A program made the translations under genes and the position numbers. A stretch of 64,000 bases of DNA from a virus: IMG/VR virus record IMGVR_UViG_3300035698_012408. One strand, given 5' to 3'. This document shows, piece by piece, positions 10,188 to 64,000 of the stretch (position 1 is the stretch's first letter; every line of letters begins with the position of its first letter). The notes beneath the pieces were generated by a model. That model saw nothing but the letters and a program-made list of their open reading frames with translations, was not told the origin of the DNA and searched no databases.

Positions 10188-10403
10188 ATGTTAGTGCTAT
10201 CTCGCAAACGCGGAGAAAGAATCTTAATTGGTGACAACATAACAGTCACCGTGGTTGACCTCCGAGACGACAAAGTGCGTCTCGGCGTCGAAGCCCCGCG
10301 AGAGGTACCGGTTAATCGACCGGAAGTTCTCCAAAAAAAGAACGCGGCCAAAGCTGCCGCCGCGGCTACCCAGACACCGCAGGACCAGTCACAGTCGGAC
10401 TGA
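10188..10403 (+). CDS. csrA: carbon storage regulator CsrA/RsmA (RNA-binding translational regulator)
   Basis: MLVLSRKRGERILIGDNITVTVVDLRDDKVRLGVEAPREVPVNRPEV is near-canonical CsrA over its whole core. SD AGGAAGGAG lies 8 nt upstream. Confidence 0.9.
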   Translation: MLVLSRKRGERILIGDNITVTVVDLRDDKVRLGVEAPREVPVNRPEVLQKKNAAKAAAAATQTPQDQSQSD

Positions 10404-11356: not shown

Positions 11357-12814
11357 TCAACTCTTCTTCGTAGAGTTCTTTGCATTATCGTCCCCGAGCC
11401 GTGACGAGCTTAAATTGAAAATAATAGGGGTCAACGACAGTTTTCCGCCGTGTGACGCCACATAATCTGCACCTGGGATAGGTTCTGCGGCCGCGTCTTG
11501 CCCCTTCACCAGAACATCTGGCTTCAACTGACGCACAAGCGATTCGACATCCCCATCGAACAAAAATACGGTGTCCACAACATCCAACAACGCCAGATGT
11601 GACAGTCGATAGCTCTCGCCAACGAGCGGTCTATTGTCGCCTTTGAGCTCCCGCAAACTGGTGTCATCATTACACGCCACCACAAGACAGTCGCCTTGCC
11701 GTACTGCTGCGCGGAGCAGTTCGATATGTCCAGCATGCAACCCGTCGAAGCAACCATTGGCTAATACGATTGACTGTCGTCGCCGACGCCGTCGCCGTAC
11801 AAAGGCCAAGGCGTCATCACGATCCATACATTTGGCAGCCCATCCGGTAGCCTCGTATCGAAATTCGTCGACGGCGTCACGATGAGCCGGCACGACACCG
11901 CGATGACGCACCACCATGCCCGCAGCGTACATAGCAAACTGCACGCAAGTATCAAACGACTTGCCTTCCAAGTACCCGACGGCCATCGCCGCCATCACAG
12001 TATCACCAGCGCCGCACACATCATAAATCTGTTGCGGACTGGACTGAAAACTGTGGATCTGGTTATCCCAGGGATTGAAATACATGCAACCGTCCGACCC
12101 CTGCGTCATGAGCACGGAGCCAAAGTTACCAGCTCGCCTCAACTCCTGCAAGATGGACTCAGGCTCCCCAGCGAACACACCAGGATGCACGACGTTGTAG
12201 CGATCCACCATATCACGCGCTTCGTTGCTGTTGGGCTTCAGCAAATCCACGTTCTCGTATTGTTCAACGCAGTCCGGGCGGCAGTCTACGAAAATCGGTA
12301 TGGCGAGTTCCTGACATCGCTGCCGAAGCGCACTCCACACCGCGTCCGTCATCACGCCTTTCGCGTAATCTGCCACACATACCAATCGTACGGCCGTGCC
12401 CTCTGCGAGCCCGTAATTGAGCCCCGCTATCACGGCTTTGTCATTGCTCAATGGCAGCGTCTCATCATCCGCACGACACAGATACTGACCACCGGCCATG
12501 ATCCGCGTCTTCACGCTCGTGCGTGTACCGTCCGGCCCTTGCGGCAAACACGACACTACACCAGCTTCGTTGAGGAGTTCCCCAACCCTTCGCCCGGCAG
12601 CGTCGTCGCCTACCACGCCAAGCAGCTTCGCATGTCCGCCGAGCGTAACTATGTTGTGGGCGACGTTACCCGCACCACCTACCGATTCCGTGAAGTCGTC
12701 TTGGGCTACGACAGGAGCCGCTGCCTCGGGCGATACACGGGTCATTTCCCCGCATACCGCCCTATCCAGCATCACGTCACCGATCACCAATACCGTAGGT
12801 TTCGGATCACTCAT
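11357..12814 (-). CDS. hldE: bifunctional D-beta-D-heptose 7-phosphate kinase / D-beta-D-heptose 1-phosphate adenylyltransferase (ADP-heptose synthesis)
   Basis: N-terminal pfkB kinase (VLVIGDVMLDR, GGAGNVA, DVCGAGDT) plus C-terminal cytidylyltransferase (NGCFDGLHAGHIELL). ATG 12814 is preferred over the GTG at 12841. Confidence 0.9.
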   Translation of the reverse strand: MSDPKPTVLVIGDVMLDRAVCGEMTRVSPEAAAPVVAQDDFTESVGGAGNVAHNIVTLGGHAKLLGVVGDDAAGRRVGELLNEAGVVSCLPQGPDGTRTSVKTRIMAGGQYLCRADDETLPLSNDKAVIAGLNYGLAEGTAVRLVCVADYAKGVMTDAVWSALRQRCQELAIPIFVDCRPDCVEQYENVDLLKPNSNEARDMVDRYNVVHPGVFAGEPESILQELRRAGNFGSVLMTQGSDGCMYFNPWDNQIHSFQSSPQQIYDVCGAGDTVMAAMAVGYLEGKSFDTCVQFAMYAAGMVVRHRGVVPAHRDAVDEFRYEATGWAAKCMDRDDALAFVRRRRRRRQSIVLANGCFDGLHAGHIELLRAAVRQGDCLVVACNDDTSLRELKGDNRPLVGESYRLSHLALLDVVDTVFLFDGDVESLVRQLKPDVLVKGQDAAAEPIPGADYVASHGGKLSLTPIIFNLSSSRLGDDNAKNSTKKS

Positions 12815-14153
12815 TTGCCTTGACTTCCACGTTGATGACACCGTCAGGTGTCGTGAAATTGTAGGTACCGATAATATTCTCGCGGGGCGGAAGCTCCGCT
12901 ACCGGATGCTCCATGTCCTCGCCACGAATGACGAACGGATCAACGTAAGGACCCTGCTCGCCATTCACCACGTCGATACGTGCCATCAGCCCTTCCGCGA
13001 CGGGCACGGAGAACGGATAGATTGCATCGCCAATCGCGACATTACCCATCGGTTGCCCTTTCACGGCAAGTGCCGACATGACCGACTGGTACTCGGCTTT
13101 ACGGATCGTGATCGATCCAACACCGATCTCCGCCAACGCTGCACCTTCCGGCGTCTCGGGCGGTGTCGGCAACGAGTCGTCGATCACCTCGAACTTCTGG
13201 ATACCGAGCCCCTGCATCTGCTCGCCGGTGTCGGTTGTGAAGTCCACATAACTCTTGCCAGCCGCATCAGGCGCGGTGATGGCGTCCACGACGCCGCGAA
13301 ACTGCCGCTCGTTTGGGCCGTCATACCGCACACGTTGCCCGGCTGCGGACGGTCGAACCGCGTTCGCCGCTTTCTTCTTCCCTCCGCCGCCGCCAGTCTT
13401 GCCCGTCCGTGGCGCTCTGGGCGCCGGCTCCTCCTTGAACGCACCAGCAAGGAATTGCTCCTTCATGGCGTCATTCACGAGGAACTCCTGCAACGTCATG
13501 GGCACGGGCGTATTCTGACTCTCCGCCTCGCGGATGATGTCAATATACAACGCCGTGTACTCGACCACCTCCTTGGCCGACCACTGGTGACAGCTTTGCT
13601 CCTCTGCCGCCTTCTTCGTGCGGGGCAGCAGTGCCTTGAGCGCGTCGTTCGGGTGCTTGAGGTTCTCGCCGTCGAAGTCCGCGATCGTCGCGTACAACGT
13701 CAAGAACGTCTCGAACGGCAGCGTGGGCGTCAGCTGACGCATCCACAGGTAGTCGACGACGAGCTTGATACGCTCACCGTCACCCTTGTACCGCTCACAG
13801 CCGCCCTGTTTCGGGAATTCCCGGAGACATTGCAGGATCGACGGCTTCTCGTCCGCGATGGCCGCGTGTTGCTCCGCCACGGTCGTCTGCTCCGCCAGCC
13901 CGGCCTGCTGCACCTGAACCGGTGGAACGGACGTAGGCTGCGGCGGCACGACAGCCGCCACGGGGCCTGTAGGCGCCGGGGTCGGCGGCGGGGCCGTCGG
14001 CATCGGTGGAACCTGCGTCGGCCCGGAACCGGCCACTGGCGACCGCGCCGGCGGCTGTGCCGGCGGTTGGGCCGGCGGCTGCGCTGGGGGCTGCTGCCCT
14101 GGTGCCGTCTGAGTCTGCGGGGGTACGCCCCAATTCGCTTGATGCTGCGTCAT
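12807..14153 (-). CDS. hypothetical protein with Pro/Gln-rich low-complexity N-terminus
   Basis: 448 aa. SD AAGGAG lies upstream of ATG 14153. Contains a PAQPPAQPPAQPPA tandem repeat and a GGGGKKK patch, with a globular-looking C-terminal half. Confidence 0.65.
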   Translation of the reverse strand: MTQHQANWGVPPQTQTAPGQQPPAQPPAQPPAQPPARSPVAGSGPTQVPPMPTAPPPTPAPTGPVAAVVPPQPTSVPPVQVQQAGLAEQTTVAEQHAAIADEKPSILQCLREFPKQGGCERYKGDGERIKLVVDYLWMRQLTPTLPFETFLTLYATIADFDGENLKHPNDALKALLPRTKKAAEEQSCHQWSAKEVVEYTALYIDIIREAESQNTPVPMTLQEFLVNDAMKEQFLAGAFKEEPAPRAPRTGKTGGGGGKKKAANAVRPSAAGQRVRYDGPNERQFRGVVDAITAPDAAGKSYVDFTTDTGEQMQGLGIQKFEVIDDSLPTPPETPEGAALAEIGVGSITIRKAEYQSVMSALAVKGQPMGNVAIGDAIYPFSVPVAEGLMARIDVVNGEQGPYVDPFVIRGEDMEHPVAELPPRENIIGTYNFTTPDGVINVEVKANE

Positions 14154-26637: not shown

Positions 26638-26705
26638 ACTGGGAGTTGACTGGGAGTTGACTGGGGGTTCGTTTTGGTAAGAAAAACTGCGTACGGATTT
26701 CCACC
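26638..26705. repeat. repeat locus 1: three tandem 11-mers (ACTGGGAGTTG x2, ACTGGGGGTTC) plus module B (AAACTGCGTACGGATTTCCACC)
   Basis: 11-mers at 26638..26670 and module B at 26684..26705. The same modules recur at 27481..27530 and 27695..27749. Confidence 0.85.
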
Positions 26706-27530: not shown

Positions 27531-27694
27531 TGAGTGGTCTTTTTGGTACGCTCGTTGAAACATTTGCTCGCCCGCGTAAGATGTCATAGTGTTATACGAA
27601 ACATTTCACGAAACTGTAACTGCTTTACCTGTAACAGGTTAGCGGGAAACAGGGCAGCCAACGGGCGTACCAGCCTACCCACGCTGAGGGGTAG

Positions 27695-27749
27695 ACTGGG
27701 AGTTGACTGGGAGTTGACTGGGAGTTCAAATCGTCCGGTTTTCCCAGGG
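27695..27749. repeat. repeat locus 3: three tandem 11-mers (ACTGGGAGTTG x2, ACTGGGAGTTC) plus module C
   Basis: 11-mers at 27695..27727 and C at 27728..27749, identical to 27481..27502. Confidence 0.85.
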
Positions 27750-37688: not shown

Positions 37689-37928
37689 TTAGGGCGTCGG
37701 ACTTTGTGGCTTCCGAGCCACGGGACCGCCTTCTACCGCGGGTGCTGAGGACGCAGGGGACCGCAAAGAACCGAGTCCCTTGCAGATCGCGACACAAAGA
37801 CACCACAGTGCGGTAAGTAGGCCCACGACTACGCTCCAAGCGTAGGTAGCCAATGTTTCACAGCCGTTTTCAAACCATTGAAATCCCGGCTCTTCCGGCG
37901 CTTCGCCAGATTTTGTATCATAATCCAT
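37689..37928 (-). CDS. small membrane protein
   Basis: 79 aa with GGAG 11 nt upstream. One TM segment, AWSVVVGLLTALWCLCVAI. Its start codon overlaps the terL start in a CATG. Confidence 0.45.
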   Translation of the reverse strand: MDYDTKSGEAPEEPGFQWFENGCETLATYAWSVVVGLLTALWCLCVAICKGLGSLRSPASSAPAVEGGPVARKPQSPTP

Positions 37929-39858
37929 GTCAATAATAACTCCAAATCCTTTGCAGGATCATCGTCGCTCCGCACTTTCCAACAGAGAAGTAAGTTCCAT
38001 TCTCTCAGATCTGGAAGCCCAGAAAGTATCTGGGAGGACGCAAGGCAACGTCGATCGAATTATCCAGCTACGCAGGCTGGCCGAGGCGGGGGCAGTTCAA
38101 ACGCTAGAACCGCTGTTACCCCTCTGTCTTACTCTTCAAGGAAAACCATACGAATTAAGCGATCACTTTCCGTTTTCGCCGGTTTTCAATGTCTCGATGC
38201 CGTCGAACCTATTGCTCAAGACAGGGCGGCAGGTATCTAAGTCGACATCGCTGGCCAGTCACGGTGTGATGTTAGCCAACGCCATTCCGTTCTTCCGCAC
38301 ACTTTATATCACGCCGCTCTACGAGCAGATTCGGCGATTCTCCAACAACTACGTGCGACCGTTTATCGATCGTTCTCCGATCAAGTCGCTGTGGTCTGGG
38401 ACGAACACTGAGAACTCGGTGTTACAGCGGTCGTTCAAAAACCTATCGTCGATGCTGTTCAGCTTCGCGTTGATGGACGCCGATCGGGTGCGTGGTATCT
38501 CGGCGGACAAGATTTGCATTGATGAAGTCCAGGACATGGACCCCGATCACATCCCCATTATCCGAGAAGTTATGAGCCACTCGGATTGGGGCCTTATGCA
38601 GACAACTGGAACGCCAAAATCCCTGGATAATCCAATCGAGGGCATCTGGCGTCGTAGTTCGCAAGCGGAATGGTTCATACCGTGTTACTCGTGTGGGGCT
38701 TGGAATATCCCGTCGCTGGAGTTTCATGTTTACGATATGATTGGGCCAGTACATGATGACATATCTGAATCCTGTCCTGGTGTAATCTGCCACAAATGCA
38801 GACGTCCGATCTTCCCGCGACACGGACACTGGGTACACCGGTATCCGCAACGTCGTTGGCAGCTCGCCGGCTTCCACGTCCCGCAGATCGTTATGCCGTT
38901 GCACTATGGCAGGCGGGATAAATGGGCGGAACTTGTTGCGAAGCAGGGCGGCTGGGGAAATACCACAGCCTCCACGTTCGCCAACGAAGTATTAGGCGAG
39001 TCTATCGATGCTGGTCAAAAACTAATCTCGGAGACAGAGCTGCGAGCGGCTTCAACACTTGAGTGGCGTAACGACCCAGACAGGCCATGCGACGCCGTGA
39101 TAAATCGCTTGCAGCATTACGAACAGCGAGTGTTGGCAGTAGACTGGGGCGGCGGTGGCCAAGACGGCGTATCCTTCACCACGGTAGCGGCGCTAGGTTA
39201 CACGTCGGCCGGACAGATTCACGTGCTGTGGGGCAAGCGGATGATCGCCTCGCAGGAACACCTTCGGGAGGCCCGAGAGATCCTGCATTGGCTACAAGTA
39301 TTCCGCTGTGACCTAATGGCCCATGACTACACTGGCGCTGGTGTCGTCCGCGAGACCGTAATGGTTCAAGCTGGTTTCGACCTTGAGCGAGTGATGGCCA
39401 TTCAGTATGTCCGAGCCGCCGCCAACAATCTAATGCGGTTCGTACCGCCGTCCGTGCTGCACAACCGCGCACATTACCGCTTGGATAAAACGCGATCGAT
39501 ACTTTATATGATGCAAGCAATCAAGTTACGACTGCTGCAATTTTTCCAGTATGATTACAACAACGATGATGACGCTGGGTTGATCAATGACTTCCTAGCG
39601 CTCGTTGAAGAGAAGACCGAAAGCCGGCTGGCAGGTGACATCTACACCATCACACGCAACCCGATGCTCTCGGACGACTTCGCCCAATCTGTGAACATCG
39701 GGTGCTCTGCCATCTGGCATGCGAACAATAGCTGGCCAAATTTCGCTGAAGCTGCCTCGATAGGCCGTATTAACTCCAGCCAAATTATAGCCACGGGTTC
39801 GCGAGAGTATGGATGGGACGAAGATCAGACGATGCGAGGCTTCTTCAATCAGCCTTAA
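37927..39858 (+). CDS. terL: terminase large subunit
   Basis: 643 aa. Walker A-like KTGRQVSKST and Walker B KICIDEVQD, with a C-terminal RNase H-like nuclease half (VLAVDWGGGG...AHDYTGAG). Confidence 0.8.
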   Translation: MSIITPNPLQDHRRSALSNREVSSILSDLEAQKVSGRTQGNVDRIIQLRRLAEAGAVQTLEPLLPLCLTLQGKPYELSDHFPFSPVFNVSMPSNLLLKTGRQVSKSTSLASHGVMLANAIPFFRTLYITPLYEQIRRFSNNYVRPFIDRSPIKSLWSGTNTENSVLQRSFKNLSSMLFSFALMDADRVRGISADKICIDEVQDMDPDHIPIIREVMSHSDWGLMQTTGTPKSLDNPIEGIWRRSSQAEWFIPCYSCGAWNIPSLEFHVYDMIGPVHDDISESCPGVICHKCRRPIFPRHGHWVHRYPQRRWQLAGFHVPQIVMPLHYGRRDKWAELVAKQGGWGNTTASTFANEVLGESIDAGQKLISETELRAASTLEWRNDPDRPCDAVINRLQHYEQRVLAVDWGGGGQDGVSFTTVAALGYTSAGQIHVLWGKRMIASQEHLREAREILHWLQVFRCDLMAHDYTGAGVVRETVMVQAGFDLERVMAIQYVRAAANNLMRFVPPSVLHNRAHYRLDKTRSILYMMQAIKLRLLQFFQYDYNNDDDAGLINDFLALVEEKTESRLAGDIYTITRNPMLSDDFAQSVNIGCSAIWHANNSWPNFAEAASIGRINSSQIIATGSREYGWDEDQTMRGFFNQP

Positions 39859-40130: not shown

Positions 40131-40442
40131 TCATTCATGGCCGAATTCGTCGTCGTCTTCTTCGTCGTAGTCTTCGTCGAAGTCGTCGTCGAAATCATCC
40201 TCGTCCCATTCCTCTTCGTCCTCGTCAACCGCGTCGGTCGATTGCTCGATAGGCAAGATCACTGGGTCGAATTGTGGTACGATAGTGTCAGCGCGTGTGG
40301 CTGCTTCCATCGCGTGGCCGTCAAGTATACCAAAAGCCTCAGGCAGCTCCTCGGGACAGAGATCGTCTTCGAGGTTAGGATAGAGGCAAAATGGGACGTC
40401 GACCACGGGAATCATCAAGTCGCTTGACATTTGGATCTCCAA
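40131..40442 (-). CDS. small hyper-acidic protein
   Basis: C-terminal DEDEEEWDEDDFDDDFDEDYDEEDDDEFGHE. Confidence 0.5.
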   Translation of the reverse strand: MEIQMSSDLMIPVVDVPFCLYPNLEDDLCPEELPEAFGILDGHAMEAATRADTIVPQFDPVILPIEQSTDAVDEDEEEWDEDDFDDDFDEDYDEEDDDEFGHE

Positions 40443-43162
40443 TTCGTTAGTTCTTGGTTAAACCACGGCTCGGGTACGAGCCATCCTTGTTCATCCTTGT
40501 ATGGCGACTCACCCACGAGTACGCCTAGTTCTTCCAACGAACGTGTGATTAGTAAGAGATCTGGACGTAGGCCACCCGCCTTATGCACAGCATCGCTGAG
40601 CATGTTTTGGGATACCCATATCACCGGCACGTCACGCGTCTCGCTAGACACGATGGCGTGCTGTCTCTGCTTTGCGTCGTCATGAGACGCTCTTGTATAG
40701 TCCAATTTTCCGTCACGGTGAAGCCGGAAAATGAGATGCAAGAAGTGACTAGCCGGCGGGCCGGTAGCCGGTGTGACCAGTACGGATTTTGCGGCTTGCA
40801 CCGCGTCACTGTTACCGCCAACGCTGTAAAACCATTCTGCCATGTCATCCAGCACGTTGATGATCAGATCATCGCAGTCGTCTGCCAGCAGCAGATTCCG
40901 CTGGTATATGTCGCGAAGGTAGTTTGGCAGCACGTAGGGTGCGGCGTGTTGGGATAGTTGCATCGACCCGAGTTTTCGGTCGCAATGAATCATATTCCAC
41001 CCGCCGCGGCTGGCCAGCACACGATTTGCTGCCCACGGTAACGCCACGATAATATTCTGAGCTTCTGGGGAGTCCAACCATTCTCCACACTTGTTTACGT
41101 CACACAGGATCGTAGGCCAGAGATACTGGTTGACCTGCGAGCAGATCCCTGCCAGCGGTGCGTGGCCTTTTGCCGCTGGCACAGACACGCACCCGAGCCG
41201 GGAGGCCGCCGCTGCTCCGACTGACTGACCCCCATCCCCGTCAAGCAGTAGCCCGACAGGTTTACGGCGCAGCGCCGGAGCTAGTAAGTTAGAACCTACT
41301 GCGGCCGCCGTTGCCCAGAACAGAGCTGTTTCATCATTCACATCACTGAGCGATTCCATGTGCTTTCTCGGGAAATTGCCCGGTTTCGGGATGTCTTTCG
41401 CCGGCACGCGTTCATTGTCAAACAGGCAAGCATATTTGTCCGTAACCTCGCCGTTTCGGCATATTGAGAATTGCGGAAAATTAAACTGCCTATTTCGTTC
41501 GTCCCAGCCCACCACCTCAACGCCATGAATGAATTCAGGCGTGTGGAACGCGATAGCCAGCTGGAATGATTTAGTGTTCCATGATGGGTAATATTCCAGC
41601 ACACCAACCTGTAGCTCGTCGCGGAGATAGTCATGTGCCCACTTGAGCAAACCCTTCTCCACAACGTCGGCCCGCGCGGTGAACGGGTACACATGACCGT
41701 GGAATTTGATCGTGCCACGGTGATAACTTCTATGGTCCGCAGTAGTTAGAACCTGTTCGACACGGATAATCGCGTTGCAGATGCGATCATTCCCGCGTTC
41801 GACATACCACCCGTCATTCTTCTCGAATAACCAACGGTTCTCGAACCGCACCCTGGCACCGTGCGAACGGTTACGTTCGATGTACTCCAGGCGTTCTCGA
41901 AGCTCCGGGTCACAGCCTTTGATAAACTCTGCGAGGTCACGACCTTGTAGCTCCATGTCTGTCAAAAGTATTGACTCGATTTCAGCTTTCGGCATGTCAC
42001 GCAGCAGTTGCCGCAACGCGGTGGCCCACGGCTGGGCGCTCCATTTCATCTGGTCCAGCCACTCTTCCGGCCCGCGGTGCCGCATGTCCTTCGCTATTTC
42101 CTTCCCGGAAACGTCGATGAGCGACACCTTAGCGTTGGCCCGTTTGGCGTGAAGAATTGCCGCGACAGCGTTGTCATTCCCCCAGCAAACTAAATCTTCG
42201 TGGCCTAGCCAGTTCCAGACGTCTGCTGTTTCATAATTCTCGTCCTTGTAGGCTACCGCGATCGGGAGCGGGCGGAAATGATCTTTCATGTACCGCATTT
42301 GCAAGCGGATGGCGAACTCGTGATCGGTAAATATAAAACCGGTATGCCCCAACCGGGGCAGCGGGGGAAGCATCAGTGAGTCGAGCATCGCGAGCCCTGA
42401 CTCGTTGCCACATCCAAAATTTGCCAAATGTCGGTAAAAGAAGTCACGTGACGGATCTCCGTCACGCCCAATTAACATAAATCCGCAGATTCTACCAGGA
42501 ACATCGTAATGTGGCATGACCAGCATGTCTTGCCACTGGGACCCCGGCATGAGATGACTCACACAAGACGTGCCGGATCGCTTCCCGCCTTTGCTGCCAC
42601 TGGCAGCCACTCGGGCGTCAGATTTAGCCACGGTGTGTGGCATTACCAGCTCCATGAGCTTCGATCTTGTGCTAGATCCAATAAATTGCCCGCCTTTTCG
42701 CGGCCAGTCTTCACTCCACCGGCCCACGCTATATCGCCCCTGGAGCATGGACAACTCGGGTGAATCGCACTTTACATGGCACGCCTGAGCGTCCTGCCAG
42801 AAGGCCGCCACACGCTGTGGGTACTTGACGTGGTCTTTGATATAGTCCCTAATAACAGATGGTGATAGGACGGCTTCGGAGAGCCCAATTTGGGAATCTA
42901 CGAGCTTTCGGAGCGTCGCGGGAGTATCGAGCTTCCAAACTGCGGCCGCAAGCTGTATCATATTTCCAGAGAACGAACACGCGTCACAGCGTGTCCATTC
43001 ACCACCGGCGGTTCCGTCTTGGTATATTCGGAGTTGTCGCGCAGCCCCACAGACCGGGCAATTCGTCATAGACGGAAGCGCAGCAGATTTAATGCGTACT
43101 CCTAAAAGCGGGAGTACGTGCTGGAAACTAACCTGACGACTTAGAGAGGACGATCTTCTCAT
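40415..43162 (-). CDS. large protein with N-terminal primase-type zinc finger (putative DNA primase or primase-associated replication protein)
   Basis: ATG 43162; the track start 43168 is TTG. CPVCG-x19-CDACSFSGNMIQLAA resembles the DnaG CHC2 finger plus the GDxIxF motif. The remaining ~850 aa have no motif I can name. Confidence 0.4.
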   Translation of the reverse strand: MRRSSSLSRQVSFQHVLPLLGVRIKSAALPSMTNCPVCGAARQLRIYQDGTAGGEWTRCDACSFSGNMIQLAAAVWKLDTPATLRKLVDSQIGLSEAVLSPSVIRDYIKDHVKYPQRVAAFWQDAQACHVKCDSPELSMLQGRYSVGRWSEDWPRKGGQFIGSSTRSKLMELVMPHTVAKSDARVAASGSKGGKRSGTSCVSHLMPGSQWQDMLVMPHYDVPGRICGFMLIGRDGDPSRDFFYRHLANFGCGNESGLAMLDSLMLPPLPRLGHTGFIFTDHEFAIRLQMRYMKDHFRPLPIAVAYKDENYETADVWNWLGHEDLVCWGNDNAVAAILHAKRANAKVSLIDVSGKEIAKDMRHRGPEEWLDQMKWSAQPWATALRQLLRDMPKAEIESILLTDMELQGRDLAEFIKGCDPELRERLEYIERNRSHGARVRFENRWLFEKNDGWYVERGNDRICNAIIRVEQVLTTADHRSYHRGTIKFHGHVYPFTARADVVEKGLLKWAHDYLRDELQVGVLEYYPSWNTKSFQLAIAFHTPEFIHGVEVVGWDERNRQFNFPQFSICRNGEVTDKYACLFDNERVPAKDIPKPGNFPRKHMESLSDVNDETALFWATAAAVGSNLLAPALRRKPVGLLLDGDGGQSVGAAAASRLGCVSVPAAKGHAPLAGICSQVNQYLWPTILCDVNKCGEWLDSPEAQNIIVALPWAANRVLASRGGWNMIHCDRKLGSMQLSQHAAPYVLPNYLRDIYQRNLLLADDCDDLIINVLDDMAEWFYSVGGNSDAVQAAKSVLVTPATGPPASHFLHLIFRLHRDGKLDYTRASHDDAKQRQHAIVSSETRDVPVIWVSQNMLSDAVHKAGGLRPDLLLITRSLEELGVLVGESPYKDEQGWLVPEPWFNQELTNWRSKCQAT

Positions 43163-44381
43163 GTCCAATTTGATCCTTGATCACACACGAGACCTATCCG
43201 GCACGGAACTACATCGGCTAACGCAGCTGTATCCACCGCCGGAATTCGTGAAAACAGCAGACCATGACGCGCTCCACGGAAACCCCGAGGAATTACCCGC
43301 GCATGTCTATGCCATGATAGCAGACCGACTGTTCCCATGCCACACCAAGGCAGCTACGTGGATGTCGGCTCTGTTCTTCCGGGACCAGTCTCGGAAGCTC
43401 CACCCATCTGTGGCGGAAGCCACCGAAGGGCGGTTACGTAAATCTGCTGGATTTTTCAAGATCCAGCCAGCAGTTGACGAACTCTGGGAAAAAATGGCCA
43501 GTGAGGAAGCTCACGGCCAGGAGCGTCTCCCAGACAGCGACTTCGCTCTCGTCTGGGAAGGCGAAGGAGCCCCGAAGGAACGGCATTACCCGCTCCGTAA
43601 CGGTGGCGAGGTCAAAATGGCTTCCGACTGGTTCGGAACATACCACGGTGAATTCAACTTCGGCGACAAGAACCGGATCGCAACTAAGATCCTGGCAAAA
43701 GCCGACGAGCATGGTGCTATGGTAGCCAATTCCGAGCTGCTTAACAAGTGTGCCGGCTACGGTTACTGCTCTGCGGAAGATGCCGCGGCAGCCTGGGAGA
43801 AGCGAGCACAGCTGCTTCAGCGAAGCCACCCGGATTTTGCCGTCGAGGCTCAGACCCTCGGGCAATCCATCCGTGCCAACACGTTCGAGGCCCGAGACCA
43901 GGGCATGCGAGTCAAAATGGCTTCGCTCATGTCCCAGTTTGACGGCCAGACGCACTTGGACCAGCTTTATGACGACGGCGGTCTGGAGCGGCCTGAAGAT
44001 TCGTTGTTCCTGGTAACCGAAAAGGTTGCAGGCGACTTCTTAATGGCCCACGCCCAGACAACCACCGGCGCCATTTATGAAAAGCAGGCCCTGGAACGTC
44101 TACCGTTGGAAAGCATCCGAGAGTGGATGGGCGACGACTTCGCAGATGAAGTTGCCGCTGGCGGCGTCATGCTGGATACCGAAAAGCTAGCCGAGATCCT
44201 CCCGACACTTCCCCGCGACGACGCGGAGATGTTCGAGAAGATGACCTCAGCTTTGCAGGTTCCGGTAGCCGCACGAGAGAAGGCGGCGGCCGACCAAGGC
44301 ATGTCCTTGGAGGAGATGGAAGCGTTCGCGGAGCAGTACGGCCAAACGGCCGCACTAAACCCCGAAGCAGCGATTAGCTAA
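43161..44381 (+). CDS. hypothetical protein (isolated plus-strand gene)
   Basis: 406 aa with SD GAGAGGA ~11 nt upstream. Helical, acidic composition. Scaffold-like is only a guess. Confidence 0.6.
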   Translation: MSNLILDHTRDLSGTELHRLTQLYPPPEFVKTADHDALHGNPEELPAHVYAMIADRLFPCHTKAATWMSALFFRDQSRKLHPSVAEATEGRLRKSAGFFKIQPAVDELWEKMASEEAHGQERLPDSDFALVWEGEGAPKERHYPLRNGGEVKMASDWFGTYHGEFNFGDKNRIATKILAKADEHGAMVANSELLNKCAGYGYCSAEDAAAAWEKRAQLLQRSHPDFAVEAQTLGQSIRANTFEARDQGMRVKMASLMSQFDGQTHLDQLYDDGGLERPEDSLFLVTEKVAGDFLMAHAQTTTGAIYEKQALERLPLESIREWMGDDFADEVAAGGVMLDTEKLAEILPTLPRDDAEMFEKMTSALQVPVAAREKAAADQGMSLEEMEAFAEQYGQTAALNPEAAIS

Positions 44382-44731
44382 CCACCATCTAATAGATCTC
44401 TCGGGCCGGTTTCGTGTACGTTACCCAATTGGGCGACGTACACCCAGTCCGGGAGATCTTCTTTTTTCACCTCTTCCAAATTCTTCCCGCCTTCGCGGAA
44501 ACCTTGAAGCTGGCACATGAATCGCTGCGTCTTGCCGTTAAACAACACGCGTTTGATTATGTTATCGAAACCAGCGTCTGGCCCTGCCACATTCGGAACA
44601 CCAGGAACGTCTGCAAGTAGCATCCGGGCCTGCGGTGTTCCAGGCAGTGCGGTATCCAGCTCGAACAGGTGAAAACTGCCGTCGTGCGTGTTCACCACGA
44701 TCTGCCATGTGATGGGGATACTCGGGGTCAT
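44378..44731 (-). CDS. hypothetical protein translationally coupled to the divergent CsrA
   Basis: 117 aa. The ATGA overlap at 44728..44731 joins it to the csrA-like stop. Confidence 0.6.
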   Translation of the reverse strand: MTPSIPITWQIVVNTHDGSFHLFELDTALPGTPQARMLLADVPGVPNVAGPDAGFDNIIKRVLFNGKTQRFMCQLQGFREGGKNLEEVKKEDLPDWVYVAQLGNVHETGPRDLLDGG

Positions 44732-44940
44732 TCTGGCACTTGCTCCTCAATTTGTACGACGGGCTTCGCCGGTTGGTCTTCGATTTCTTTTCGTACGATG
44801 ATGACGTCCCGATCGGCCGTGAAGCCCAGCCGCGGCTGCGGATGCACCCGGCAAACGAGCACTTCAATAACCCGGGGCTCGGTACTCGGCGGTACCGTGA
44901 TCTTGACAACTTCGTTCTTTTTCCTGCTTAACACTAGCAT
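44728..44940 (-). CDS. divergent CsrA-family protein
   Basis: MLVLSRKKNEVVKI...VIEVLVCRVHPQPRLGFTADRDVIIVRKEI aligns with CsrA (MLILTRRxGExxxI...VxVxVLGxxGxxVRIGxxAPxxVxVxREEI), with a ~12-aa insertion after strand 1. Confidence 0.7.
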   Translation of the reverse strand: MLVLSRKKNEVVKITVPPSTEPRVIEVLVCRVHPQPRLGFTADRDVIIVRKEIEDQPAKPVVQIEEQVPE

Positions 44941-44943
44941 TGA

Positions 44944-45582
44944 TTACTCCTCATGAGGGTCATCCAGATCGATGACACGTTCCCTGTTGTTCCCGCTGGC
45001 TACGGTGCCACGAGAATCGCTAATCGTTTCAGTAGGCATCGCCGGGGGCATATTATCCGCCGGCTGAACCGCAGGGTCTTCTGACCCCGAGGGAGCATAC
45101 TCATACTCCACGAGCACCTGCATGATCCAGTCACACAGCAAATCAATATTATCGATCAGCTTGTTTTCGAGATCAGGCCCGTCACGGTGCTGCACACGAC
45201 ATCGCCATTTCGCGTCCGCAAGATCCGTAATAGTTCTCGGTGTCTGTCTGGTCGCGAGTGTGATGATCAATGTGTAATCGTTATCCAACGCCTGAGCAAC
45301 CTGCGGCGGCTCTTCCATCCGCTCAATGAAGTTGCGAAAGGAACTACCGGGAATCACACGAGCCCCGTCTGTTACCGCAAAGCCGCTAGCGTGCAATTCA
45401 TCGAATATGTCGAACACCGGATCAAAGAAATGGATGATCCCGTCCCGTAGTGTTACTGCATCCGTCGCTGCACTTGTGGGTGCGTGAGCACGCTCGCGGG
45501 CAGCCTCCAGCGACGCCTGGACCTTGCTCCGCCGCGGTGGCGGCCCCGGTCGGCGCGGGTATCGATGTGCTCGTCTTGTCAT
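44944..45582 (-). CDS. hypothetical protein
   Basis: 212 aa. C-terminus is NNRERVIDLDDPHEE (recurrent motif). Confidence 0.6.
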   Translation of the reverse strand: MTRRAHRYPRRPGPPPRRSKVQASLEAARERAHAPTSAATDAVTLRDGIIHFFDPVFDIFDELHASGFAVTDGARVIPGSSFRNFIERMEEPPQVAQALDNDYTLIITLATRQTPRTITDLADAKWRCRVQHRDGPDLENKLIDNIDLLCDWIMQVLVEYEYAPSGSEDPAVQPADNMPPAMPTETISDSRGTVASGNNRERVIDLDDPHEE

Positions 45583-46331
45583 CTTACGCTGATCTCCACG
45601 CCGGTTTCTTCAAAGGTTTCTTGTAAATGCTCTTCCCAGCTAGTCTCCACTGGACCAGTCTGGTCCCAGCAAAGCCCGCAAGCGGAGCAGGTGACCTTAG
45701 GGCCATCCGTTATGCCAGTCTCCGCTAGGCACACGGTAACGCCGTTGGCTTCTCGCATGATCGTATCAGGTCTGTCACGAAATACCAAATCACAATCGTT
45801 CGGAGTCAGTTCCGCGTCAATATCGTCGATAGCCATGTAGGCTCTCCGTACCCCGCGAATAAGCGGGGCCGGGCCAGTCTCTCGGTCGATCGACCACCAC
45901 ATCTGAAAATTCGGAAGGGCGGCCAGTCGAATCAGTTCCGGCAACAAGTCCTCTTGTCGCCAAGATCGGGTGTAAGCGAAGAACTGCACATCAGGCAGCG
46001 CGGACGCTATGCTATACCACTTATTGATATATTCCGCATCATAGAAGTCTCCACCAACATGGATACGCATCACGCGGGCGAACGTGGCCAGCAGCGATGC
46101 GATCATCCAAGCAACGAATGCCGCTGTCTTGGAAAAGTCGAAGTTTCTAAGATGCGATCTCTTTACAACCCTCTGGTTGAAATGCCCTCGCTTGGCGTAG
46201 CAGCATCCGCGACACAGGCGAGACTCGCCTACGCACGACCACAACTTACCACACGGGACAGACCAACTGTGAATGAGGTGACCGAGTTTCACGTTACGTG
46301 GCTCGGACAATGTAGCGATTTTGGTGCTCAT
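45579..46331 (-). CDS. Cys-cluster protein (possible Fe-S / radical-SAM-like or Gp37/Gp68-type phage protein)
   Basis: CGKLWSCVGESRLCRGCCYAKRGHF near the N-terminus and CSACGLCW near the C-terminus. The family assignment is from memory only. Confidence 0.35.
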   Translation of the reverse strand: MSTKIATLSEPRNVKLGHLIHSWSVPCGKLWSCVGESRLCRGCCYAKRGHFNQRVVKRSHLRNFDFSKTAAFVAWMIASLLATFARVMRIHVGGDFYDAEYINKWYSIASALPDVQFFAYTRSWRQEDLLPELIRLAALPNFQMWWSIDRETGPAPLIRGVRRAYMAIDDIDAELTPNDCDLVFRDRPDTIMREANGVTVCLAETGITDGPKVTCSACGLCWDQTGPVETSWEEHLQETFEETGVEISVR

Positions 46332-58090: not shown

Positions 58091-58447
58091 TCAGAATTGA
58101 AGTTTTGCTATTTTCCCTTGCCGCTTTGACCGACGATAGTATATCACAATCGGCCGACAAGGGTAACCTTTGCGGCTTTCGATAAATGCCCGGACATCTT
58201 CAAGTGCCGGGTCCTTCGTGCGTTTCAGCTCCAGAAGTTTAATGAACAGGGCATCTACGCACCCGCTCATAAACTTCCACTCGCTGCCACACGTTTTACA
58301 ATGTCTATTGTCCAGATACGCCTGCCATGACGCAAGGGCAACCTCGCGAAGATAGGCAAAAGCCGGGGCCTTGACATAAAAGTCGGGAGCCTTCAGCAGC
58401 CCAATCATGTGCTGGCGATCTAGCTTCAATCGTCTGTTTTCACTCAC
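58091..58447 (-). CDS. hypothetical protein
   Basis: 118 aa with a 4-nt overlap with the upstream GT gene. Confidence 0.5.
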   Translation of the reverse strand: MSENRRLKLDRQHMIGLLKAPDFYVKAPAFAYLREVALASWQAYLDNRHCKTCGSEWKFMSGCVDALFIKLLELKRTKDPALEDVRAFIESRKGYPCRPIVIYYRRSKRQGKIAKLQF

Positions 58448-60624
58448 AGTTCAACTAATTTGAGGGCTGGAGGAGCCACTACCCGAGGTTGTCGCGGCGG
58501 TACGGGCGGTGGTGTGGCTGTGGGCGATACCAGCGGTGGAACCTCCATCACACGCGTATTATTGCGTGGTGCCGGCTGCGGGGGCTGCGTCGCCGGAGCT
58601 TGAGCTGGAGGCCTGGGTGTCATGCCTTTTGCGACCGTGTCGATCAGCGGCATGGTGGACCCGCGGCGGTCCACGGAGCTGGTACGAACAAACTGCTTGC
58701 TGCCATTGAACTGCTTGATGGCGAAACCTGCTTGATATACCTGCTCCCCGATCTGCCAATCCCCGCCCGTGTGTGACAGGCCTGTGCCGAGATCGGGAAT
58801 ATCCGCTGTCTTGATACACTCGTGGGTGATTGCCCAGAACCCGCCGGTAGCAAACAGGATTTTCGTGCCGTTCGGGCTAGGCTTGTCGTTGTGCATCCGC
58901 CACGGACGTCCCTTGTACCACGGTCGCGAGGACAGGACCTCTCGCTGCGTCGGATTGGTCGTCCACACAAACTTCGCTCCGAACATGTGAGCGTTGTTTG
59001 ATTTATGGTGATTTACGATATGCTGCGTGAGTATGGACGCCCAGTTCGGGTTGACGTCGCAGACCGAGTCGTCGTCGAACCAGAGAACCCACTTCGTTTC
59101 GATCGGACAGTCAGGGTCAAAGAACATCTCGCGCATGACCGGATACTTGTAGACATTCTCGGCGTGCTGGTAATGCTTCCGAATCACACCCTTTTTCACA
59201 TAGTTCTCGATCATCGCCAACGACTTTGAATTCAACGCGTTGGAACCAACACGCAGATCCATGCGGCCCGCGGGCATGGTAGCTATCACAGATTCAAGAC
59301 ATCGCTTGTGCAGGTCATGGAATTCCTCGCCGCCGTAGAACAGAATACAGACGGTGTACTTCCCACCCACGTCCTCATTGTCGAAGGCCGCCTCGCTCGC
59401 GTATTCTCGTGTGCCGCCAGGACGCACGGCCACCCCATGCTTGGCTGACCGCCCACGTGTCTCCAGTTTCGCCTTCGGGCTACCACTCATCCGAATGTTA
59501 GCATTGGCTGGCAATTTTACGGAAGTGCGGGCTGACACATGCTGGCTGCCGCGTTTGCATGCCTGCTTAGACGGTACGACTTCGAGCAACTTGGGCTCCT
59601 GCAATTCGGGAGGCTGGACGCCGCCAAGGGGCGGGAGGCTTTGGTCGGTGTAATATTTCATGACTGCTTCCAATACAAGTTCAGGGGTTATCATATTCAT
59701 GCACTCGGCCACTGCCTGTCCTGGCAAGTAAATAGGCCGATGACACAGCAATTTATCATCATTCAGCGGTGTCACTTTGTTCCTCCAACAGCCGTGATGC
59801 TTACAGCAATCCAGCATACCTATCGTGTGCAGATACTGATGGGGCACCAAGATGTTTCCACTGGCTGTCGGACCAAAACCTTTGTTCTCGTTGACGTAGG
59901 CTTCCCACCACCACGCCTCGCGACCACCGCCGAGCACCACCGCGGGACGCTGTAACGCGGCGGCTATGTGCATGGCTGCTGTAACGCCGCAGATAACACC
60001 ATCTGCGTGGTGGATCAGACGTATGAGATCGCGTAGGTTTGTCTGCCCCACAAGATCCAACACTCCGGTGAGCGGCGGATGCCAGTGTCCGCCATCGTTT
60101 CCGCCAGCCTGCACAACGCCGAGACCCCTTGTGGTCAGGGCGTCAACAACGGTTTGAAAGTAATCGGGTCGCCATACCTTGACCGTGGCATCACTCTTCC
60201 CACCTGACAGTATAACCCAATAACGACCATCAACCAATGACACGTCACGCTCAGCGTCGGACAAGTGCAGATCGCCATACGGATGGTGCATCGGTACTTC
60301 TATACCAGTCTGCTTCTTGAAGTCACGATGAAAATATCCACAAAAATGAACGGTCTCTATGTTCTGCACACGAATGCCAGCACCGTACGAGAGCTTGATA
60401 AACTGCACGCCGGGCTTCAACGCCTTCGGTTTCTTTGATTTATGATTCCACAATTCGGTGATATATGGATTGTGCCGCCACAAGTCTGGACACGTCGTAT
60501 CGATGTCTATCTCGACCTCGTCGCCGTACGTCAAATGAATGTCGCGTACCAACGCGGACATGCAGACAATGTCGCCGGGAGATCGGTGGTGTGCTAGCAC
60601 AATTCTCTTGGGATTAACCGCCAT
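58444..60624 (-). CDS. two-domain glycosyltransferase: N-terminal GT9 heptosyltransferase-like plus C-terminal GT2-like, with Pro-rich tail
   Basis: GT9 half: RIVLAHHRSPGDIVCMSALVRDI and LVGQTNLRDLIRLIHHADGVICGVTAAMHIAAAL. GT2 half: KYTVCILFYGGEEF...WFDDDS. Tail: PPAQAPATQPPQPAP. Confidence 0.75.
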   Translation of the reverse strand: MAVNPKRIVLAHHRSPGDIVCMSALVRDIHLTYGDEVEIDIDTTCPDLWRHNPYITELWNHKSKKPKALKPGVQFIKLSYGAGIRVQNIETVHFCGYFHRDFKKQTGIEVPMHHPYGDLHLSDAERDVSLVDGRYWVILSGGKSDATVKVWRPDYFQTVVDALTTRGLGVVQAGGNDGGHWHPPLTGVLDLVGQTNLRDLIRLIHHADGVICGVTAAMHIAAALQRPAVVLGGGREAWWWEAYVNENKGFGPTASGNILVPHQYLHTIGMLDCCKHHGCWRNKVTPLNDDKLLCHRPIYLPGQAVAECMNMITPELVLEAVMKYYTDQSLPPLGGVQPPELQEPKLLEVVPSKQACKRGSQHVSARTSVKLPANANIRMSGSPKAKLETRGRSAKHGVAVRPGGTREYASEAAFDNEDVGGKYTVCILFYGGEEFHDLHKRCLESVIATMPAGRMDLRVGSNALNSKSLAMIENYVKKGVIRKHYQHAENVYKYPVMREMFFDPDCPIETKWVLWFDDDSVCDVNPNWASILTQHIVNHHKSNNAHMFGAKFVWTTNPTQREVLSSRPWYKGRPWRMHNDKPSPNGTKILFATGGFWAITHECIKTADIPDLGTGLSHTGGDWQIGEQVYQAGFAIKQFNGSKQFVRTSSVDRRGSTMPLIDTVAKGMTPRPPAQAPATQPPQPAPRNNTRVMEVPPLVSPTATPPPVPPRQPRVVAPPALKLVEL

Positions 60625-62793: not shown

Positions 62794-64000
<1,207 letters not shown>

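Follow-up and report, generated by a model that had tools for sequence, protein, structure and literature searches.

A divergent CsrA-family gene and an adjoining new small-protein family in a conserved gene block of uncultured large phages

Organization of the locus

Two overlapping genes, one encoding a divergent member of the CsrA family (CsrA2) and the other an acidic protein of 117 amino acids (aa), were identified in a 64,000-nucleotide (nt) stretch of DNA from IMG/VR virus record IMGVR_UViG_3300035698_012408. The whole stretch is referred to here as the window. CsrA is a global translational regulator. The two genes and their signals are located as follows:

44947..44952, minus strand: Shine-Dalgarno sequence GAGGAG, 6 nt upstream of the CsrA2 ATG, read from the sequence
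44728..44940, minus strand: CsrA2, a divergent CsrA-family protein of 70 aa (Pfam PF02599)
44728..44731, minus strand: ATGA overlap between the stop codon of CsrA2 and the start codon of the 117-aa open reading frame (ORF), read from the sequence
44378..44731, minus strand: acidic protein of 117 aa, a new small-protein family (HMMER family, AlphaFold2 model)

The TGA of CsrA2 (44730..44728) overlaps the ATG of the 117-aa ORF (44731..44729), and the 117-aa protein is encoded on the same polycistronic message as CsrA2. This ATGA had been pointed out in an earlier model-made reading of the letters and their translations (the sequence-only reading), and it is present as described.

The CsrA2 protein

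The product of the CsrA2 gene, MLVLSRKKNEVVKITVPPSTEPRVIEVLVCRVHPQPRLGFTADRDVIIVRKEIEDQPAKPVVQIEEQVPE, matches Pfam PF02599 with 37.1 bits (E = 3.1e-9, gathering cut-off 27), residues 1-56 being aligned with positions 1-50 of the 53 in the model. In PHROGs, CsrA2 matches the annotation 'CsrA-like regulator' weakly. Searched alone against PDB sequences, it gives weak matches (E ~0.3), among which RsmF/RsmN and CsrA are the highest. A subgroup profile composed of CsrA2 and its five nearest relatives matches E. coli CsrA (1y00) with an E value of 2.5e-12. The sequence-only reading had taken 44728..44940 for a divergent CsrA-family gene, and the Pfam and subgroup-profile matches uphold the CsrA fold and make membership of the family virtually certain. 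CsrA2 falls below the cut-offs of both NCBIfam csrA equivalog models, TIGR00202 (27.9 vs 70.1 bits) and NF002469 (23.3 vs 73 bits), and is a member of the family rather than an ordinary orthologue.

Seven residues of CsrA2 (M1, L2, L4, R6, G39, R50 and E52) are invariant in an alignment of 16 CsrAs that includes the proteins of E. coli and B. subtilis. The β1 strand, MLVLSRK, fits the pattern M-L-[IV]-L-[ST]-R-[RK], G39 is the Gly of the R-[IL]-G strand, and R50 and E52 of strand β5 correspond to R44 and E46 of E. coli CsrA. The N-terminal strand and the C-terminal GxxA..V.I.RKEI region had also been described as kept in the sequence-only reading, and both are confirmed by the alignment. The His that precedes the β5 Arg (H43 in E. 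coli) is replaced by Val in CsrA2. The invariant β1 residues and the β5 Arg and Glu are those in contact with the GGA motif in solved CsrA/RsmE-RNA complexes, and CsrA2 is probably competent to bind RNA, as judged from its residues.

The insertion in CsrA2, which had been put at about 12 residues, is shorter. The subgroup profile alignment places a TVPPSTEP insertion of 7 residues between strands β2 and β3, and the alignment of 16 sequences places a 1-residue deletion in the β3-β4 turn. At least five further lineages keep the TVPPSTEP subtype, with identities of 45-54%. The tail, EDQPAKPVVQIEEQVPE, is rich in Pro and Glu, with prolines at positions 57, 60 and 69, so that the usual C-terminal helix is doubtful in CsrA2. 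The AlphaFold2 model of the CsrA2 monomer is unusable (pLDDT, the predicted local distance difference test, 51.8). It contains a helix at residues 51-54 only, with a pLDDT of about 50, and the Foldseek matches of this low-confidence model are meaningless. CsrA2 would most likely work as a homodimer, which would bind GGA-containing mRNA leaders or host Csr/Rsm small RNAs (sRNAs). Such binding would reprogram translation during infection.

The 117-aa protein family

A first, word-indexed search yielded a single relative of the 117-aa ORF, with 50% identity. An exhaustive HMMER search with the resulting two-sequence profile yielded 24 representatives at E <= 1e-3 among 1.84 billion proteins. Two giant proteins, P0010 and P0022, were rejected as members of the family, being low-complexity false positives that vanish when the 24-sequence profile is used. 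The genuine members are 82-139 aa long and mostly acidic, with a median isoelectric point (pI) of 5.2. They share the motifs HLFE.D, PGVPNV.GP.AGFDN, Q..GFR and EEV..LP.W, and one Asn is invariant. The 117-aa ORF almost certainly encodes a real protein.

The AlphaFold2 model of the 117-aa protein, made with the family alignment, has a pLDDT of 91.5 and a predicted template modelling (TM) score of 0.80. It is made up of six strands, a single helix and a long loop, which is well ordered and bears the conserved motif. Foldseek comparison of the model with the PDB gave nothing with E < 0.5 (best match E 0.55, TM 0.34), and comparison with BFVD gave no match with E < 0.001, the best being uncharacterised viral proteins at E 7e-3. 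The 117-aa ORF has no match in Pfam, PHROGs, NCBIfam or PADLOC, and a Pfam search at E <= 1 returned a noise-level match to INCENP_N alone. The family profile found no solved relative and no FliW among PDB sequences. A relation to ACT domains was considered for the family and dismissed, the match to 2ko1 (E 0.16) not being significant. The sequence-only reading could recognise no FliW motif in the 117-aa ORF, and the Pfam, NCBIfam, PDB profile and Foldseek searches agree in giving no match to FliW or CesT. Since no solved structure matches, the 117-aa protein is neither FliW-like nor CesT-like. It forms a new family with an apparently new fold.

No homologue of the 117-aa protein was detected in GenBank phages, and a pattern scan of IMG/VR with the family alignment found nothing.

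The canonical CsrA paralogue

The window was stated in the sequence-only reading to encode two CsrA paralogs, and a second, canonical CsrA gene was indeed located far from the first:

10188..10403, plus strand: CsrA1, a canonical CsrA paralogue of 71 aa, amid minus-strand genes

CsrA1 was found by tblastn with E. coli CsrA (E 6.5e-15) and is borderline on the NCBIfam csrA model (72.4 bits vs a cut-off of 73). A sensitive profile scan of the window returned exactly two CsrAs, CsrA1 and CsrA2, and one copy of the 117-aa family. CsrA1 has 165 relatives in IMG/VR contigs. The β1 strands of the two paralogues are nearly alike (MLVLSRKKNE in CsrA2 vs MLVLSRKRGE in CsrA1). CsrA1 shares 70% identity over residues 1-47 with the CsrA that adjoins the 117-aa family gene on the L011 contig (L029), whereas CsrA2 shares 41% identity with it (distance 0.59). 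This suggests that the copy beside the 117-aa gene diverged after the genome had gained or duplicated a second, canonical copy.

The conserved gene block and its CsrA slot

Genomic context was obtained for 13 lineages that carry the 117-aa family. All block relatives share the gene order F12, F8, F4, GP88, a variable slot, CsrA, the 117-aa family gene, the reversed ORF406 and a primase-like gene, the same order extending over at least 10 kb. The block is an early or replication-type one, found in a clade of uncultured large phages with contigs of up to 155-230 kb. The position immediately upstream of the 117-aa family gene is called here the CsrA slot. In the twelve lineages in which it holds a CsrA-family gene, the slot CsrAs are mostly basic and are of the following types:

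L011, L013, L014, L099, L101 and L105: canonical slot CsrA
L008:2365-2607, L009:3748-4008, L010:3661-3894 and L016:4549-4791, minus strand: slot CsrA with a helix-like insert of 17-21 residues between β2 and β3, RsmF/RsmN-like (4k59/4kji)
The window and L001: slot CsrA with a 7-residue TVPPSTEP loop

The slot CsrAs of L008, L009, L010 and L016 align over their full length and in a single stretch with RsmF/RsmN of P. aeruginosa (E ~3e-6), and they have no long C-terminal helix. This full-length alignment indicates that the RsmN/F-type architecture occurs in uncultured large phages.

The thirteenth lineage (L102:3663-5126, also L103 and L104, a 78-kb contig) has an unrelated ORF of 113 aa in the CsrA slot, and a sensitive profile search detected no CsrA within +-10 kb of its 117-aa family gene. 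Two extra genes, one encoding a very basic protein of 79 aa and the other a protein of 155 aa, lie between the 117-aa family gene and the convergent ORF of this lineage. The 113-aa, 79-aa and 155-aa ORFs have no Pfam match.

Comparison with known CsrA systems

To our knowledge, only two kinds of protein that control CsrA are known. The FliW-CsrA system is known from Bacillus subtilis, Campylobacter and Clostridioides, and its complex has been solved (5DMB). In enteropathogenic E. coli, CsrA is antagonised by a protein, CesT, instead of an RNA, and CesT covers the surface with which CsrA binds RNA (5Z38). CesT is a type III secretion chaperone, and its gene lies far from csrA. FliW has been described as an antagonist of CsrA (PMC7829508). 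The present locus resembles the FliW-CsrA system in that the gene of a small protein lies beside csrA, and control of CsrA at the protein level is an established principle. It differs from it in that the 117-aa protein has no Pfam match to FliW and its fold has no counterpart in the PDB, of which 5DMB is part, and no FliW chain appears among the listed Foldseek PDB matches of the model. The setting differs as well: here csrA is followed by the 117-aa gene, and the two stand in a phage block of replication type instead of a flagellar operon. The surface-covering mode of CesT would be compatible with an invariance that is confined to RNA-binding residues among the slot CsrAs, whereas the 117-aa protein has no match to CesT by sequence (Pfam) or by fold (Foldseek against the PDB, none with E < 0.5).

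CsrA2 itself resembles RsmN/RsmF of Pseudomonas aeruginosa (4K59, 4KJI) in having an insertion between β2 and β3 and in probably lacking a long C-terminal helix. CsrA2 differs in having a Pro-rich loop of 7 residues at this position instead of an inserted α-helix, and its subgroup profile is nearer to canonical CsrA (E 2.5e-12) than to RsmF (E 2.5e-6). Location on a mobile element is shared with other phage- and plasmid-borne csrA genes, such as rsmM in P. aeruginosa phages. The csrA alleles of mobile elements have been documented, with 30 of 2517 phage genomes carrying them (PMC7366521). That survey makes no mention of two paralogues per phage, of a β2-β3 insertion subtype or of a conserved downstream small protein.

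Relation of the 117-aa protein to CsrA

The 117-aa protein has about an even chance of being an independent member of the early block whose gene order is kept. The competing explanation is that it is a phage-specific partner dedicated to the slot CsrA (an antagonist, adaptor or safety catch), made in a fixed ratio by translational coupling. It would bind the CsrA dimer and tune or time its RNA binding, with a function like that of FliW or CesT and an unrelated fold. This explanation is regarded as rather unlikely, but several observations favour it and weigh against independence. A CsrA-family gene lies immediately upstream of the 117-aa family gene in 12 of the 13 lineages, at identities of the 117-aa protein down to ~30%, so that, on the point of co-occurrence raised in the sequence-only reading, the gene is syntenic with a CsrA gene in relatives. 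At sequence level, most of the relatives that were read show an overlap of 1-44 nt between the two genes, and by gene-call coordinates it amounts to 1 nt in L101 and 41 nt in L105. In L010 it is not certain where the 117-aa family gene starts, possibly just behind the stop of CsrA. The junction is unbroken in the 12 lineages, although the variable slot that precedes CsrA gains and loses genes. In L011, L013 and L014 the 117-aa family gene has no Shine-Dalgarno sequence before its start, which would fit coupling to the translation of CsrA. The slot CsrA occurs in three architectures, having been remodelled twice with the adjacency kept, and the residues invariant across all three are the RNA-binding ones only, as would fit CesT-like binding over the RNA-binding surface. 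The 117-aa family is acidic, against the mostly basic slot CsrAs, and it was never met outside this phage clade (1.84 billion proteins, GenBank phages and IMG/VR CsrA loci).

Independence is favoured by the conservation of the whole block in the same order, which makes the adjacency of the two genes not specific to the pair. Overlaps are generic in this genome, since 28 of the 62 same-strand junctions in the window overlap or abut, 8 of them by exactly 4 nt. One lineage has the 117-aa family gene without CsrA within +-10 kb. Conversely, CsrAs of the TVPPSTEP type (P0004 and P0007) are found in other phage settings, where the genes that follow them are different and do not include the 117-aa family, which is also absent from 79 of the 80 listed IMG/VR loci with CsrA1-like genes, the exception being a contig already known. 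A signal of co-evolution is absent: pairwise distances of CsrA and the 117-aa protein are uncorrelated (r = 0.04), whereas those of the 117-aa protein and ORF406 are correlated (r 0.83), although the test has little power, given the shortness of CsrA and the saturation of its distances (0.5-0.73). Finally, the 117-aa protein is unlike the known CsrA-binding proteins. The CsrA/partner pair proposed in the sequence-only reading is thus borne out as to a real gene beside CsrA, while the block-wide order, the generic overlaps and the CsrA-less lineage speak against the role of partner or antagonist. On balance, independence of the 117-aa protein within the block is more probable than a role as a dedicated CsrA antagonist, and a direct functional link to CsrA is doubtful. 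Any modulation of CsrA by it, if there is any, would be facultative and non-homologous to FliW or CesT. A little less credible again is the full proposal that the 117-aa protein is a third class of CsrA-family protein partner after FliW and CesT, phage-specific, with a new fold, co-inherited through three CsrA architectures and switching phage or host CsrA activity during infection.

Two further explanations concern the genes themselves. CsrA2 might be a neofunctionalised or decaying duplicate that forms mixed dimers with CsrA1 or host CsrA and poisons or retargets them, the slot copy having lost the C-terminal helix and the glycine turn between β3 and β4 and being no normal homodimeric repressor. 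The score of 27.9 bits against an equivalog cut-off of 70.1, the near identity of its β1 strand to that of CsrA1, the prolines in its tail, the four-residue helix of the low-confidence monomer model and the much closer similarity of CsrA1 than of CsrA2 to the L011 slot CsrA are consistent with this. It is nevertheless improbable, as all RNA-binding residues are kept in CsrA2 and the conservation of the TVPPSTEP subtype in other lineages points to purifying selection on a working protein. The other explanation, that the 117-aa ORF is no gene but arose by chance as an open frame in G+C-rich DNA, draws on the plentiful spurious overlapping ORFs of a window with 56% G+C. It is refuted by the 24 representative homologues with their conserved motifs and invariant Asn and by the confident predicted fold (pLDDT 91.5), the position being conserved in 13 lineages as well, and its probability is negligible.

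Significance

Phage-borne csrA genes have been catalogued but are unexplained. Phage csrA as such was already documented (PMC7366521), and new here are the subtypes with insertions, the presence of a second paralogue and the small protein conserved next to CsrA. The locus provides a defined CsrA subtype with a β2-β3 insertion, in a phage that has a canonical copy too, and a new, confidently folded small-protein family next to phage CsrA in nearly all lineages. The slot CsrAs (canonical, RsmN/F-like and short-loop) stand in genomes of otherwise the same order and thus form a natural series. Should the two proteins interact, they would constitute a new viral means of controlling translation, of the host or of the virus. 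Even otherwise, the CsrA series remains useful as a natural experiment on the extent of the fold required by the RNA-binding core.

Neighbouring genes of the block

The genes that flank the pair in the window are the following:

43161..44381, plus strand: ORF of 406 aa, converging on the 117-aa gene, the stop codons of the two overlapping by 4 nt at 44378..44381
44944..45582, minus strand: ORF of 212 aa, occupying the one slot of the block that varies, which lies between GP88 and the CsrA gene
45579..46331, minus strand: GP88-family protein (PF17338, Pfam E 1.7e-33), the upstream anchor of the block
40415..43168, minus strand: ORF of ~890-917 aa, the downstream anchor of the block, with a weak match to Zn_Ribbon_Prim (E 0.19 only) and assigned by synteny

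The 406-aa ORF (ORF406) alone is reversed among otherwise co-directional genes. It is the best conserved of the trio (45-65% identity), and nearly all relatives retain its stop-stop overlap with the 117-aa family gene. Searches of Pfam, PHROGs, NCBIfam, PADLOC and the PDB returned no match for it, and it has no homologue in GenBank phages or GTDB genomes, while one of its homologues bears a faint mark of DUF6582. Much of the leader of the 406-aa ORF coincides with the start of the gene on the other strand. This leader contains a conserved hairpin and Shine-Dalgarno region, and no convincing CsrA sites were found in it. The downstream anchor ORF, for which there is a gene call on L003, probably starts near 43070. 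Homologues of the 212-aa ORF are present in the window, L008, L009 and L010, whereas L011, L013, L014 and L016 have an unrelated ORF or none in its place. GP88 lies upstream in those relatives whose loci reach far enough.

The phage and other features of the window

The window belongs to a large uncultured phage. A gpA-type large terminase encoded at 37927..39858 indicates its phage origin, and the closest GenBank terminases, those of Vibrio phage D69 and Salmonella phage Arash, are 29-32% identical. Other genes in the window encode a ribonucleotide reductase, an SbcC-like ATPase, a helicase and the GP88 protein, and a metagenomic contig of 215 kb carries the same proteins. No tRNA gene and no Rfam family at the gathering threshold was detected in the whole 64 kb, the latter result indicating that no CsrB/RsmY/RsmZ-like RNA is present. 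A scan of the window for promoters and terminators gave counts at chance level, and the density of GGA along the window is unremarkable after allowing for the coding strand.

An HldE-like bifunctional protein with a PfkB kinase and a cytidylyltransferase-like domain is encoded at 11357..12841 (minus strand), and a protein of 726 aa encoded at 58444..60624 (minus strand) contains a heptosyltransferase domain (Glyco_transf_9). These heptose/lipopolysaccharide-type genes hint at a Gram-negative host.

An 11-bp unit, GACTGGGAGTT, occurs in three tandem copies each at 26638..26669 and 27694..27726. Both sites are intergenic, about 1 kb apart and upstream of small minus-strand genes. The unit reads AACTCCCAGTC on the minus strand, and its GGA-containing strand is antisense to the adjoining genes. 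By chance, no double 11-bp unit is expected (0 in 100 shuffles). A period of 11 bp is suggestive of sites for a regulator that binds DNA, or of an element of a phage promoter. Other tandem repeats, whose periods are 18, 24 and 51 bp, are present at 63458..63631 inside an ORF at 62794..63891 (minus strand). A chance tblastn fragment at the same positions reads as Gly-X-Y collagen-like repeats, which occur in some phage tail-fibre proteins.

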